A DNA stretch of 24,000 nt from Thermanaerothrix solaris (GTDB lineage: Bacteria > Chloroflexota > Anaerolineae > Anaerolineales > Anaerolineaceae). The notes beneath the pieces were generated by a model, which was not told where the DNA came from, did not search any database, and was given only the letters and a program-made list of their open reading frames with translations. The position numbers were made by a program, and so were the translations under genes. Below, in pieces: positions 19,680 through 22,777 of this stretch. The stretch covers positions 1,766,366 to 1,790,365 of the forward strand of contig NZ_JAUHMF010000001.1 of NCBI RefSeq assembly GCF_032334255.1, written 5' to 3'. Position 1 is the stretch's first letter. Every line of letters starts with the position of its first letter.

Positions 19680-20400
19680 TTTACAAACCATGATTTGGAA
19701 AGAATGGAAGGAACTTTTTACCTCTCGGAGTACCGGGCGGGGCACCCTACTCTCCACGCTGATCATTCTCTTCGTCCTGGGGGTGTTCATGCCTTTACAA
19801 GTGGGTGAGGAGTGGTTTACCCAACCGCTCACCGTGGTGGTATGGGCCTGGATGCCCATTTTCCTCACGCTAGGGATGGTCACCGATTCCTTCGCCGGTG
19901 AACGCGAGCGCCACACACTGGAAACCCTACTGGCGACCCGCCTGCCCGATCTTGCCATTCTGTTGGGGAAGATTTTGTCCGCCGTGCTTTATGGCTGGGG
20001 GATAGCCATACTCAGTCTGCTGCTGGCGGCGTTGACCCTCAACCTCAGCTTGAAAGGCGGTCCGTACTTCTATGCGCCTGAATTTTTCGCCGCGGCATTG
20101 GGGTTCAGCCTGCTCAGTACGGTGCTGTTCGCGGCGCTCGGAGTGCTATCGTCACTGCGCGCGGCAACAGCCCGCCAGGCTTACCAGCGCTTGAGCCTGA
20201 TCCTGTTGGGGCTTTACTTCCTGCCGTTTATGATCCAGTTTCTCCCCACCGACCTGCGGGCGCGCATTCTTGAAGCCCTGATGGGCCTGGATTGGCGGGG
20301 AATGATGCTGGCGCTGGGCGGGGTGTTGGTGGTGCTGGATGTGGGGGTATTGGGGGTGTGCGTCCGGCGCTTCCAGCGCTCGCGCCTGCTGTTGGATTAG
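19669..20400 (+). CDS. ABC-2 type transporter permease
   Basis: 243 aa with about 6 TM helices. The start overlaps the ATPase stop by 11 nt. Confidence 0.8.
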   Translation: MWHDLQTMIWKEWKELFTSRSTGRGTLLSTLIILFVLGVFMPLQVGEEWFTQPLTVVVWAWMPIFLTLGMVTDSFAGERERHTLETLLATRLPDLAILLGKILSAVLYGWGIAILSLLLAALTLNLSLKGGPYFYAPEFFAAALGFSLLSTVLFAALGVLSSLRAATARQAYQRLSLILLGLYFLPFMIQFLPTDLRARILEALMGLDWRGMMLALGGVLVVLDVGVLGVCVRRFQRSRLLLD

Positions 20401-20596
20401 GTGCAGCCCAGGTCCACACGTTCGCCCAGACCTTTTTGGGAGATGCTTAAAAAGGGGAACTCGCCTTCGTCATCTGCAGCACTGCGTTAGTTCCACATTG
20501 AACCATGATCCCAATTTTATGGGTATTCACGGGTGGTTATGCCCCTCGGGGTGGGGAGGTTTTCCCCGGCCGCTTTGGGCGCGTCTTGCACCTGCA

Positions 20597-20624
20597 TTGA
20601 CACACCGCCCAGAATCGGTATAAT
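20597..20624 (+). promoter_or_regulatory. consensus sigma70 promoter for tRNA-Lys
   Basis: TTGACA (20597-20602), 16-nt spacer, TATAAT (20619-24), 25 nt upstream of the tRNA 5' end. Confidence 0.65.
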
Positions 20625-20648
20625 AAAGGATGCTGGACGAAGTGTTAC

Positions 20649-20721
<73 letters not shown>

Positions 20722-20759
20722 CCTCATAATTTGAACCTTATCAACCCGCAAGTTCTAAA

Positions 20760-20793
20760 CCCGTCAAGACGCCGGTTGACGGGCTTTGTTTTC
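20760..20793 (+). terminator. Rho-independent terminator after tRNA-Lys
   Basis: CCCGTCAA (20760-67) pairs with TTGACGGG (20776-83), followed by CTTTGTTTTC. Confidence 0.6.
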
Positions 20794-20805
20794 AAACCGG
20801 GAGAT

Positions 20806-20830
20806 GCCAGGGGTATCAAGTACCCCTGGC
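20806..20830. repeat. perfect 10-bp inverted repeat GCCAGGGGTA-N5-TACCCCTGGC
   Basis: Read directly. It lies 38 nt upstream of the tandem-HTH gene start, with no T-run after it. Confidence 0.5.
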
Positions 20831-20867
20831 AAGTCCCGTCAAAGGCCGCAGATTCCTGAAATCTCAA

Positions 20868-21338
20868 ATGGTTGCTCTTCCCACTCTAATCCCCCTTTCC
20901 GAAGCCGCCCGCAAGTATGGGCTGGACGAGGCTCGCTTGCGTGACTTGGTGGAGAAGGGTAAAATCCGAGCAGGAATATTCCCCGGTTCGGATGAGGTGC
21001 TCGTGAGCGAGGATGAGGTGAGAAGCGAAGCCATCCAGGAAAAAGGTCTCCGCAAAGAGGATTTGCCGGAGTATCAGAAGCACGCAGAAAAGCGTGGAAG
21101 GCCTATTTGGATTAGCGAGGCGGCGAGGAGATATGGTATTCCACACCAAACAATTATTCGGTGGGTTAAGTGTGGTTATATAAAACAATTGGGTGTAGAT
21201 AGAAACAAAGTTCTCATAGACGAGGCAGATATTGCTTATTGTTCTGAAATATACAAAAAACGCGGAAGACAAGGAAGAGTGTTATTCAACCCTGATGGAA
21301 CACCCTACAAACCAAAAACAGGTCCATTAGCCATGTAG
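20868..21338 (+). CDS. tandem helix-turn-helix DNA-binding protein (excisionase/MerR-type HTH x2)
   Basis: Two similar modules: LIPLSEAARKYGLDEARLRDLVEKGKIRAG...LVSEDEV and WISEAARRYGIPHQTIIRWVKCGYIKQLG...LIDEADI. AT-rich codon usage. No clear Shine-Dalgarno. Confidence 0.62.
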   Translation: MVALPTLIPLSEAARKYGLDEARLRDLVEKGKIRAGIFPGSDEVLVSEDEVRSEAIQEKGLRKEDLPEYQKHAEKRGRPIWISEAARRYGIPHQTIIRWVKCGYIKQLGVDRNKVLIDEADIAYCSEIYKKRGRQGRVLFNPDGTPYKPKTGPLAM

Positions 21339-21366
21339 CGGCAGAAAGCCGCTTTTTTTTATTTTT
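21337..21366 (+). terminator. Rho-independent terminator
   Basis: AGCGGC (21337-42), loop AGAAA, GCCGCT (21348-53), followed by TTTTTTTTATTTTT. It overlaps the TAG stop. Confidence 0.78.
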
Positions 21367-21369
21367 AAT

Positions 21370-21395
21370 CTGCACAAGTATTGACACTTGTGCAG
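21370..21395. promoter_or_regulatory. perfect 10-bp palindrome CTGCACAAGT-N6-ACTTGTGCAG overlapping the -35 box (candidate operator)
   Basis: Read directly. 21370-79 is the reverse complement of 21386-95. The TTGACA -35 box sits in the centre. Confidence 0.5.
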
Positions 21396-21410
21396 AATTT
21401 ATGTTATACT
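21381..21410 (+). promoter_or_regulatory. strong extended -10 sigma70 promoter
   Basis: TTGACA (21381-86), 18-nt spacer ending in TGt, then TATACT (21405-10). Confidence 0.62.
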
Positions 21411-21416
21411 CCTCAT

Positions 21417-22173
21417 AGCACCTTTCCAAACCACCTGCTAACTGCCCCGACAAATACAACGCCCCGCCGGGCGTTGTGCGCCCGACAGGGCGCTCCGTGA
21501 GCCGTGTGGGTGCACGCTCACGGTCGAGGCAAGCAAACCAACTGCTCACCTCATCTGCGATTGTAGCATGAGATGACAGCCCTCTGCAAGCCTCTCACAA
21601 GGAATGTGATTTGCAGAGGGCTTTGTGTTTCCCGTGCGGTGTTGGCTCAAAGCCTTTCAGGCGGCAGGTGCGTGAGGGCGGGTTCAAGTCCCGCCCGCCT
21701 GAATTCCGTTTTTGCCACGCTAACGTCGGCCGTGTAGGGAGGCGGGAGCGGGGCTGAGTCATCAGCACCTGGCGGGGCAAGGGACGGGGAGCCCTTGTCT
21801 GACGGAGCGGCAGGTGAGACCGGCGGAAGCCTGCCGGGGGACGTGACAGCCGGGAGAGACCGGCACATTCAGCACCTTACCAGTTGAGCATGATCCATCT
21901 CCAATCCAACCGCCGAAGGTGGGCAGGAGGCTCCCCGATCCTGCGGTGGGTGCAAGTCCCACCCGGTTGGACTGCCAAACCTGTCGGGGTCGTTGCCCCA
22001 ACAACGGGCAGGTGCAGCCCGGCGCACCCTGGCCAGCGCCGGGAAACAGGCAGGGTGACAGCCCGGAGAGACGGGCATGCAGAGGGGTTGGGGCTGAATC
22101 GGCCCAGCGAAGGCGAGGCAGACCCTCAAAGAGCCGGACGTGCGCGAGGGCAACCCCTCTGCCACTTCACCAC
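21417..22173 (+). ncRNA. candidate large structured non-coding RNA locus (unclassified; possibly more than one RNA)
   Basis: It lies between a consensus promoter and a tRNA. It has no credible ORF. It is GC-rich and holds at least 12 perfect stems of 5-12 bp, two T-loop hairpins, three TGACAGCC-hairpin units and a 12-bp long-range stem (22079-90 / 22151-62). Copies of the repeated hairpins differ only by compensatory pair changes. The ends are estimates. Confidence 0.5.
21578..21630 (+). terminator. terminator-like extended hairpin inside the RNA locus
   Basis: A 12-bp perfect stem AGCCCTCTGCAA (21578-89) / TTGCAGAGGGCT (21611-22) carries an inner stem TCACA-AGGAA-TGTGA and is followed by TTGTGTTT. 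Confidence 0.45.
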
Positions 22174-22245
22174 GCGGGAGTAGCTCAACGGAAGAGCGGC
22201 GGCGTCATGAGCCGCAGGGTGAGGGTTCGAATCCCTCTTCCCGTT
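22174..22245 (+). tRNA. tRNA with anticodon CAT (Met, or Ile2 if lysidine-modified), island-borne
   Basis: Manual cloverleaf: acceptor GCGGGAG/TTCCCGT (G1.U72 and G7.U66 wobbles), D arm GCTC-AACGGAA-GAGC, anticodon arm GCGGC-GTCATGA-GCCGC, variable AGGGT, T arm GAGGG-TTCGAAT-CCCTC. No encoded CCA. Confidence 0.7.
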
Positions 22246-22261
22246 CTGGGAGTGAGCAACC

Positions 22262-22777
22262 ATGAAAATCAGAATGCCGCTGGAAGAAGCCGAACGAATT
22301 GCGCTGAAATACGCCGAAATGCTTGCGCCAAAATGCGAGAGGGTCGAGATCGCCGGGAGTATTCGGCGGCGCAAGGCAGAGGTGGGAGACATTGAGATGG
22401 TGGCAAAGCCGCTGCCTGCGTTTGACCTGTTTGGCTCTCCGAATGGCTATCACGATCTTTCCATACCGTTACCAGCGGTCAAGGACGGGCAACGATACAA
22501 GCAGTACACCCTGCCCGAAGGAATACATCTTGACCTGTTCATCGTTTTACCCCCGGCACAATGGGGAGTAATCTTTGCTCTGCGCACCGGCGGAGCAGAG
22601 TTCTCTCGTAAACTGGTCACGGCGAAACGATACGGCGGTTACCTGCCGTCTGCTTACGTGGTGAGAGACGGCGCGGTTCATCGTGTTGATACCGGGGAGA
22701 TCATCCCTACCCCCGAAGAAATTGATTTTTTCAATCTCTGTGAACTGGGCTGGATCAAGCCCGAAGAGAGGAATTGA
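22262..22777 (+). CDS. minimal DNA polymerase X-family (Pol beta-like) nucleotidyltransferase, palm plus C-terminal subdomain only
   Basis: GSIRRRKAEVGDIEMV matches the G-S...D-x-(D/E) NTase motif. HLDLFIV supplies the third carboxylate. FALRTGGAEFSRKLVTAKRYG parallels LyFTGS..FN..lR..A...G of Pol X. The C-terminal PEEIDFFNLCELGWIKPEERN parallels the Pol X terminal sEeeIf..LGL.yIpPe.R motif. Confidence 0.72.
   Translation: MKIRMPLEEAERIALKYAEMLAPKCERVEIAGSIRRRKAEVGDIEMVAKPLPAFDLFGSPNGYHDLSIPLPAVKDGQRYKQYTLPEGIHLDLFIVLPPAQWGVIFALRTGGAEFSRKLVTAKRYGGYLPSAYVVRDGAVHRVDTGEIIPTPEEIDFFNLCELGWIKPEERN

Follow-up and report, generated by a model that had tools for sequence, protein, structure and literature searches.

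Two tRNA-elbow mimics in the non-coding early leader RNA of a prophage-like element of Thermanaerothrix solaris

Introduction

Why should T arms recur where there is no tRNA gene to hold them? The question is raised by a window of 24,000 nucleotides (nt) from the Anaerolineaceae bacterium Thermanaerothrix solaris (contig NZ_JAUHMF010000001.1, positions 1,766,366 to 1,790,365 of the forward strand; "the window" means this whole stretch, and positions are counted from its first letter). In it, about 760 nt without a credible open reading frame (ORF) are followed by a tRNA-Met gene and then by a gene for a Pol X-like protein of 171 amino acids (aa). An earlier note, made from the letters alone, had picked out two T-arm-like hairpins in the ORF-free region and had suggested that they are structural modules of a non-coding RNA, or else tRNA mimics acted on by tRNA-processing or nucleotidyltransferase enzymes. 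We find that the region is a non-coding leader RNA of about 760 nt containing two related tRNA-elbow mimics, each of which has one of the hairpins as its T arm, and that this leader stands at the head of the early operon of a prophage-like element, next to the tRNA-Lys gene where the element is integrated. From sequence comparison we tentatively propose that the two elements scaffold a nut-like, Nus-factor-dependent leader of the early operon, a function that we infer and whose chances we would put slightly short of even.

Results

Structure of the two elements

The hairpins are as the earlier note had read them: hairpin 1, GGGCGGG-TTCAAGT-CCCGCCC, spans 21676-96 between the flanks TTCAGGC (21656-62) and GCCTGAA (21697-703), and hairpin 2, GGTGGG-TGCAAGT-CCCACC, spans 21945-63. 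Both stand above chance, as the 13-mer pattern common to them, GGGTKCRAGTCCC, matches the window three times, in the T arm of tRNA-Lys and in the two hairpins, against 0.00 matches expected from 100 shuffles. The loops UUCAAGU and UGCAAGU are T-loop motifs closed by G-C pairs, and the U...A positions to which the note had drawn attention, which can form the reverse-Hoogsteen pair of a T-loop, hold well beyond this genome, U1 and A5 being invariant in all homologues.

Of 401 genomes sampled in the family, 19 have homologous loci (Anaerolinea, Bellilinea and Thermanaerothrix), Anaerolinea thermophila UNI-1 having two, and both hairpins are there. In about 20 such loci, in mobile elements of Anaerolineaceae, each hairpin caps a coaxial stack of 13 bp (7+6), and all the loci, parsed for structure, follow a common plan: an outer helix of 7 bp, a linker, a T stem of 6 bp and a loop of 7 nt. 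The 3' strands of T stem and outer helix are continuous, and in most copies an unpaired A comes after them. The G-U pairs found among the homologues are compatible only with an RNA read from the + strand.

In element 1, the outer helix pairs 21657-63 with 21696-702 (a further pair, 21656/21703, is optional), the T stem pairs 21677-82 with 21690-95 around the T-loop UUCAAGU at 21683-89, and a purine-rich linker of 13 nt (21664-76, GCAGGUGCGUGAG) lies between the two 5' strands. The minihelix that had been proposed for hairpin 1 is thus real in that an acceptor-like helix is stacked on the T arm, but its 7+7 register has to give way to 7+6: the seventh T-stem pair, 21676/21696, is not retained in homologues, and position 21676 is free to vary while G21663 and C21696 are invariant. 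Over the 17 sequences of alignment A4 the 13 pairs are 99.5% paired, with changes on both sides in five of the 13, and slid controls all fall to 31-54% paired. The outer helix, for instance, reads ACGGACG/CGUCCGU in the copy on contig C1 against UCAGGCG/CGCCUGA in the window, and the T stem GGCGGG/CCCGCC gives way to GAUGGG/CCCAUC (C1, C2 and C3 are contigs of this genome, G000, with the window copy on C2, and L-numbers denote loci). The loop is the canonical UUCRAGU in the homologues. The window copy scores 78.8 bits with a covariance model, R1, and its minimum-energy fold (21654-21705, z -3.05) is the minihelix.

Hairpin 2 likewise is the T arm that had been described (T stem 21945-50/21958-63, T-loop UGCAAGU at 21951-57), but it is not a lone hairpin. 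It stands on an acceptor-like helix of 7 bp (21906-12/21964-70) that is followed by an unpaired A (21971), and a third arm (21923-28/21939-44, loop 21929-38), inserted in the linker (21913-22), abuts the T stem; the minimum-energy fold of 21903-21973 is this three-way junction. The stack is 99.5% paired in alignment A5, with three of 13 pairs changing on both sides, and the arm 97.8% paired in alignment A7, with five of seven pairs changing on both sides. The loop is always UGCAANU in the homologues. Bellilinea has versions of element 2 that lack the arm and have a linker of 13 nt, so that elements 1 and 2 can be seen to be variants of one module. The linkers of both stacks share a purine-rich, GCAG(R)GUGC-like start and a conserved GG. 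This linker replaces the D arm and, by analogy with G18/G19 of tRNA, its GG could lock the T-loop.

The third arm of element 2 also has a partner. Within its 10-nt loop the bases CUCCCCG (21931-37) are complementary to the loop of a hairpin in an optional insert domain upstream; the complement in the window is 9 nt long and lies at -121 from element 2, and L011 has a different complement, of 10 nt, in the same place (Table 1). Duplexes of cognate loops attain -14.0 and -14.6 kcal/mol, those of swapped loops -5.9 and -6.6, and six of eight cognate pairs are matched by 1% of shuffles or fewer. These contacts were judged loop by loop from duplex energies; the MAFFT alignment across both loops is out of register. 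RNAalifold on the MAFFT alignment 3' of hairpin 2 missed the acceptor helix through misalignment, and the long-range pairs of that run were not used. The covarying loop-loop match suggests that element 2 is either tied into a larger fold or recognises the upstream hairpin in trans. With both hairpins found in homologous loci, all helices covarying and the loops of the arm and its partner covarying as well, the view of the earlier note that the hairpins are structural modules of a non-coding RNA is borne out.

Table 1. Complementary loops of the element 2 arm and of the hairpin upstream of it.
Locus	Arm loop	Upstream partner	Remarks
Window	CUCCCCG	CGGGGAG	
L011, L050	CCGUCCCA	UGGGACGG	Relative position as in the window; L011 is the contig C1 copy
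L052	CUGUCC	GGACAG	Against L011, includes one clean switch from G-C to A-U
L022	GGUCCCC	GGGGACC	
L023	GCUGUCC	GGACAGC	
L006	UCCCCG	CGGGGA	
L004	UCUCC	GGAGA	

Do these elements belong to a known class of RNA? As in a tRNA, a 7-bp acceptor helix is stacked on a T arm whose loop has the U54...A58 positions; the T stem has 6 bp and the stack 13 instead of 12. There is no cloverleaf, with neither D arm nor anticodon arm and no score above threshold. ARAGORN at its default threshold, at 95% and in tmRNA (transfer-messenger RNA), intron and mitochondrial modes (the last at default threshold) placed no gene on either hairpin on the + strand, and it found no tmRNA, standard or permuted, in the window or region. 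At thresholds of 70-80% it reuses the T arms in plainly spurious calls, and from 95% upwards only tRNA-Met is left. Rfam 15 at gathering score gave only two tRNAs on the window, and at E up to 10 on 20400-22400 it gave 16 matches, the rest of them sub-threshold noise such as a group II fragment (13.5 bits). At this permissive setting there was no tRNA match at 21650-21710 or 21900-21975, and no match to the C4 and CI antisense RNAs of phages. The best match on element 1 is mascRNA (RF01684; 21658-21701, 21.2 bits, E 0.32), below its gathering threshold of 42.5. GOLLD (RF01998) and ROOL (RF03087) were absent from the matches at E up to 10 on 20400-22400 and at gathering score from eight homologous loci. 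The RNA matches no Rfam 15 family, and we met no description of it in the literature searched. By these searches the hairpins are not ordinary or recently decayed tRNA genes, and decay was one of two findings that the earlier note had itself named as fatal to its reading.

boxA sites

The leader contains two boxA-like sites, the first near its 5' end and the second between the T-loop elements (Table 2). For comparison, the boxA of the rrn leader of this genome is GCACCTTAACAA, which agrees with that of the E. coli rrn operons in 10 of its 12 nt; it is placed between the rrn promoter and the 16S gene, behind which its complement completes a processing stem (C3:604270-604281 and 605979-605990). 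In relative G003 it again flanks an interval of the size of 16S, and the exact 12-mer occurs three to eight times per genome in five of five relatives, against 0-1 for the control; in this genome GCACCTTNNCAA occurs 20 times and its reversed control twice. The same GCACCTTAACAA is also found behind the promoters of a locus present in three copies (C3:134544, 173706, 190950) and ahead of a gene at C3:340145.

At site 2 the first 8 nt, GCACCUUA, are identical to the core of the rrn-leader boxA of the host. NusB-NusE are described as recognising 8 nt of boxA (PMC3177189). In 13 of 14 listed homologues the place of site 2 is held by G(C/U)AC(C/A)UU(A/G)(A/C)CA, and L041 has GCAGCUUACCAA. The spacing is tight: in short forms, which lack the insert, boxA starts 4 nt after element 1, and in L023 element 1, a GAGAGA hairpin and boxA follow directly on one another. 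Site 1 is conserved at the 5' start of most homologues.

Related modules elsewhere

The association of a T-loop minihelix with a small hairpin and boxA recurs outside these leaders. A structural scan found nine non-tRNA T-loop minihelices in the 3.25 Mb genome, all in mobile-element regions, and none in 687 kb of unrelated viral DNA. Four of the nine have a boxA-like word at +17 or +18 (chance about 8e-4 each), with a CCC-GCAA-GGG hairpin before the boxA, and these four are sited between small phage-type genes. The composite of minihelix, hairpin and boxA occurs three times in one Bellilinea element and is also found in another family of the order. A metagenome scan for the T-loop word followed by boxA gave 65 matches, 38 of them with a full minihelix and most of these also with a GNRA hairpin, CCC-GCAA-GGG; the other 27 had no hairpin and were discarded as chance, which makes them an internal chance control. 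Over 24 distinct composite copies the acceptor helix is 100% paired, with four of six pairs changed on both sides, and on one metagenome contig of 117 kb two copies lie upstream of a gene for an Erf-like recombinase, with an endolysin nearby. Two patterns for hairpin 2 had no match in IMG/VR, where the composite pattern gave a single AT-rich match without a hairpin that we judged to be chance, and GenBank phage records gave only matches of tRNAs to tRNAs.

In another Anaerolineales family (L077, L079-L084, L087) we observed a different minihelix, of about 46 nt, GGGGCG-CAAGCCCCGU-GUGGG-UUCGAYU-CCCAC-U-CGCCCC-A, one copy of which encodes CCA. Together with a related second type it explains the single R1 matches in eight of 12 sampled genomes of that family; a ninth, G028, has other matches.

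Genomic setting and other parts of the leader

The order of genes around the RNA is constant: a host tRNA gene, a helix-turn-helix (HTH) gene, the RNA, sometimes a tRNA-Met, then a gene for Pol X, a gene for SSB (single-stranded DNA-binding protein) or a small ORF. The part from the HTH gene onwards is kept in about 20 loci, and the host tRNA gene lies 650-900 nt upstream of the RNA. In the window (Table 2) the gene before the leader promoter encodes a double-HTH protein of 156 aa and ends at a terminator (21337-53). Equivalent promoters also stand ahead of the homologues, of which only some have a tRNA-Met at the end of the RNA. The 171-aa protein consists of a palm and a Pol lambda-like thumb only (Pol lambda thumb, E 1e-5), and a Pol X-like gene lies behind the RNA at several loci of three genera (A. 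thermophila, A. thermolimosa, Bellilinea). Farther downstream in A. thermophila there are genes for a replication initiator of the DnaA_N type and for a PD-(D/E)XK nuclease. A tie of the hairpins to the neighbouring nucleotidyltransferase is not supported: the protein is a Pol X-type DNA polymerase fragment, and elsewhere it is SSB or a small Cys-rich ORF that follows the RNA. A functional link between the RNA and the Pol X-like gene was rejected on the same ground.

Table 2. Features of the leader region and its surroundings (positions in the window).
Feature	Position	Strand	Evidence and remarks
Host tRNA-Lys	20649-20723		ARAGORN and Rfam; lies just upstream
Sigma-70-type promoter, TTGACA-18-TATACT	21381-21410	+	11/12 consensus match, TG extension; directly upstream of the leader RNA
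boxA-like site 1, GCACCTTTCCAA	21418-21429	+	About 8 nt into the transcript; rrn boxA match 10/12, core 7/8
Terminator-like hairpin, 12-bp stem and U-rich tail	21578-21631	+	Ends the 5' module; read from the sequence
T-loop element 1 (minihelix)	21656-21703	+	Alignment A4, covariance model, fold
Optional insert domain	21723-21844	+	Closed by ACGUC 21723-27 / GACGU 21840-44; missing in short-form homologues
Insert hairpin, GGCAAGGG-ACGGGGAG-CCCUUGUC	21776-21799	+	Loop CGGGGAG 21785-91 complementary to the element 2 arm loop
GCCGG-GAGAGA-CCGGC hairpin	21849-21864	+	7 nt upstream of boxA site 2, boxB-like position
boxA-like site 2, GCACCTTACCAG	21872-21883	+	Between the T-loop elements; rrn boxA core 8/8, overall 10/12
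T-loop element 2 (three-way junction)	21905-21971	+	Alignments A5 and A7; fold reproduces the junction
Second hairpin, GCCCG-GAGAGA-CGGGC	22061-22076	+	Closes the 3' domain after element 2; conserved in homologues
tRNA-Met(CAU) gene fused to the leader 3' end	22174-22246	+	ARAGORN; Rfam 61 bits
First operon protein gene, 171-aa minimal Pol X-like polymerase/nucleotidyltransferase	22262-22777	+	Pfam DNA_pol_B_thumb and palm

At least two copies of the element, nearly identical, are present in the genome. The window ends with its contig (23999-24000), and the first 330-360 nt of the RNA recur, 97-99% identical, at the end of contig C3, so that the assembly was broken by a repeated element. A third copy of the RNA, L011 on the 89.9-kb contig C1, is 72% identical, has its own promoter and is followed by a small Cys-rich ORF and an SSB gene. 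Contigs C2 and C3 have further minihelix-boxA modules, 7-10 kb in from their starts, which may be parts of the same elements as the leader copies.

Several other parts of the leader deserve mention as observations in their own right. The 5' module (21417-21631) has three GC-rich hairpins after boxA site 1, and the terminator-like hairpin with its U tract closes it. Short-form homologues have analogous hairpins with U tracts, and the C1 copy lacks the module altogether, its promoter leading almost straight into element 1. CU-rich tracts (21885-21905; CCUCC, in some copies CACCUCCUUUC) stand before element 2 and, where the form is short, before element 1; in sequence they resemble the 3' end of 16S and might pair with GGGAGG stretches or with Shine-Dalgarno sequences. 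In short forms and in the C1 copy (L011, L012) a repeated hairpin with a 12-nt loop, GYCCC-CCGGUGGUGCAA-GGGRC, lies 3' of the core, just ahead of the small Cys-rich (zinc-finger-like) ORF.

The GAGAGA hairpin has a life of its own. As GAC(A/G)GCCNGGAGAGACNGGC (window 21846-21864 and 22058-22076) it is present in more than 120 IMG/VR viral contigs among the matches listed, usually 20-45 nt before a start codon (loci L162-L241), and this phage RNA motif, widespread as it is, has no family in Rfam 15. In the viruses it is preceded by AACGYC-N8-12-GRCGU, the helix of which covaries (ACGUC/GACGU to ACGCC/GGCGU); the window helix 21723-27/21840-44 is the same closing helix, around an insertion of about 110 nt. 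A link of the T-loop elements to this motif was considered and dropped, as there is no minihelix near 82 viral copies.

Discussion

The T-loop elements may be parts of an antitermination leader. This proposal rests on: (i), the covariation of all helices; (ii), kissing loops that change together from element to element and stay complementary; (iii), a boxA between the T-loop elements; (iv), a promoter directly upstream; (v), the conserved order of HTH gene, RNA and operon genes and (vi), the recurrence of the composite of minihelix, hairpin and boxA. We infer that the leader is transcribed, binds Nus factors and brings about antitermination, and the following sequence of events can be imagined. 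Contact of the element 2 arm loop with the upstream hairpin would close a loop that displays boxA; the T-loop elements would serve as rigid scaffolds, possibly also as landing pads for proteins or RNase P; boxA and the small hairpin beside it would be presented to NusB/NusE and other Nus factors; and RNA polymerase having passed the leader would become resistant to termination, as in rrn operons and at lambda nut sites, and would read on into tRNA-Met, the Pol X or SSB gene and the replication genes.

Several observations weigh against this proposal. Sites 1 and 2 of the window are each two positions off the rrn 12-mer, the C1 copy lacks site 1, and there is no boxA after element 2. As the terminator-like hairpin precedes both T-loop elements, any action of theirs on it would have to go through site 1. 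Duplex energies reveal no convincing kissing complementarity in L003 and L019 and, unlike in lambda, no N-like protein was identified.

The main rival, unlikely in our opinion yet compatible with a nut-like leader, is a punctuation of the tRNA type: RNase P would cut at the 5' edge of each minihelix and RNase Z at its unpaired A, as they would at the tRNA-Met that ends the leader, releasing small RNAs and a translatable mRNA, perhaps with addition of CCA. Much in the structure invites this idea, namely the 7-bp acceptor-like helix on a T arm with the canonical UUCRAGU loop, the unpaired A after the helix, the weak match to mascRNA and the genuine tRNA to which the transcript is fused. Between the T-loop elements, modules are gained and lost independently, like beads on a string, and the missing CCA is no obstacle as the tRNA genes of the window do not encode it either. 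However, the stack has 13 bp and not 12, its first pairs are U-A or C-G and not G-C, the covarying loop-loop contact of the element 2 arm suggests a larger fold that stays intact, and processing alone does not explain the tight, fixed spacing to boxA.

That the leader is instead one large ornate RNA with a job of its own, like GOLLD and ROOL, with the T-loops as internal tertiary contacts and the boxA words incidental, seems to us improbable. It is large, GC-rich and ORF-free, lies beside tRNA genes in prophage-like DNA and has a long-range kissing loop, and GOLLD and ROOL are described from the same tRNA and prophage neighbourhood (PMC5737381; PMC12286853). Yet neither family is matched at E up to 10, whole domains of this modular architecture are missing in many copies, and the same T-loop minihelix stands alone between protein genes next to boxA.

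We regard as very improbable a trans-acting immunity or incompatibility RNA, in which a processed tRNA-like RNA would kiss, by its arm loop, the matching hairpin on the nascent leader of an incoming or co-resident element and stop early transcription, in the manner of the CI RNA of P4 and the C4 RNA of P1/P7. The element-specific loop pairs would suit it, CUCCCCG/CGGGGAG on C2 and CCGUCCCA/UGGGACGG on C1 coexisting in one genome, as would the position in an early leader next to a terminator-like hairpin; but the partners lie about 120 nt apart on one transcript, which makes a contact in cis simpler, the partner hairpin is missing from short forms, and Rfam at E up to 10 matches nothing beyond tRNA. 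Hardly credible, finally, is the view of the elements as functionless debris, decayed tRNA genes or tRNA 3' halves left from old integration sites: the T arms are tRNA-like, the element integrates at tRNA genes and ARAGORN reuses the arms in its spurious calls at 70-80%, but compensatory changes keep the helices 97.8-99.5% paired across genera, no 5' strand is missing, loops as well as linkers are kept, neither Rfam (E up to 10) nor ARAGORN (default, 95%) calls a tRNA, and the arms are unlike the T arm of the neighbouring tRNA-Lys.

Returning to the nut-like leader, we may ask how far it extends. It is tempting to speculate, though we hold it to be doubtful, that Anaerolineales phages and prophage-like elements use an undescribed kind of antitermination site, in which a tRNA-elbow mimic is an obligatory companion of a boxB-like hairpin and boxA. 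The mimic might act through a tRNA-recognising host factor (for example RNase P) recruited to the elongating polymerase, or the RNA structure might replace an N-type protein, with the kissing loops serving as a specificity code. T-loops, tRNA mimics and boxA are known parts, and their conserved composite is undescribed in Rfam 15 and in the literature searched; as far as can be told, the link to boxA, the kissing loop and the composite module are new. If the leader is nut-like, phages of Chloroflexota would have their first defined antitermination signal, and an RNA-heavy solution to a job done in lambda by a protein. If the elements are RNase P and RNase Z signals, tRNA punctuation would extend to operons of bacterial mobile elements.

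Comparison with known systems

The T-loop modules of the cobalamin riboswitch, RNase P and stem I of the T-box are tertiary-contact or tRNA-elbow-binding modules. Element 2 resembles them by its 7-nt loop of the UGCRANU type closed by G-C pairs, and differs in matching none of those Rfam families and in having a T-loop that caps an acceptor-like stack. The CI RNA of P4 and the C4 RNA of P1/P7 are tRNA-like immunity RNAs processed by RNase P in phage early leaders. The present leader shares with them a small tRNA-like structure in what is likewise an early leader, complementary segments on the same transcript and a terminator nearby; there is no sequence or Rfam similarity, the complementarity runs from loop to loop over 6-8 bp and processing is putative. 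GOLLD and ROOL are likewise long, structured, ORF-free RNAs in prophage-like DNA next to tRNA genes, whereas the leader, unmatched by their models, is a chain of separable modules and not one fixed fold.

Closer are the tRNA minihelix, the tRNA-like domain of tmRNA and mascRNA, with which the elements share a 7-bp acceptor-like helix coaxial with the T stem, a 7-nt loop with U1 and A5, a short strand with GG where a D arm would be and, behind the helix, an unpaired A. In contrast to a tRNA, they have a 7+6 stack and no D arm, element 1 has no anticodon arm, U55 is replaced by G in element 2, CCA is not encoded and both are embedded in a long leader.

As to function, the nearest parallels would be the lambda nut sites, the rrn leaders and the put RNA of HK022. 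No nut or rrn leader with a T-loop minihelix came up in our literature search, and in this the leader differs; but like them it has an early promoter just before it and a long operon after it, and it has a boxA, the 8-nt core of which is that of the host rrn boxA, next to a small hairpin (with a GNRA or GAGAGA loop) that might act as a boxB. In the rRNA spacer of E. coli the order is tRNA, boxB, boxA, and in the leader it is tRNA-like element, small hairpin, boxA.

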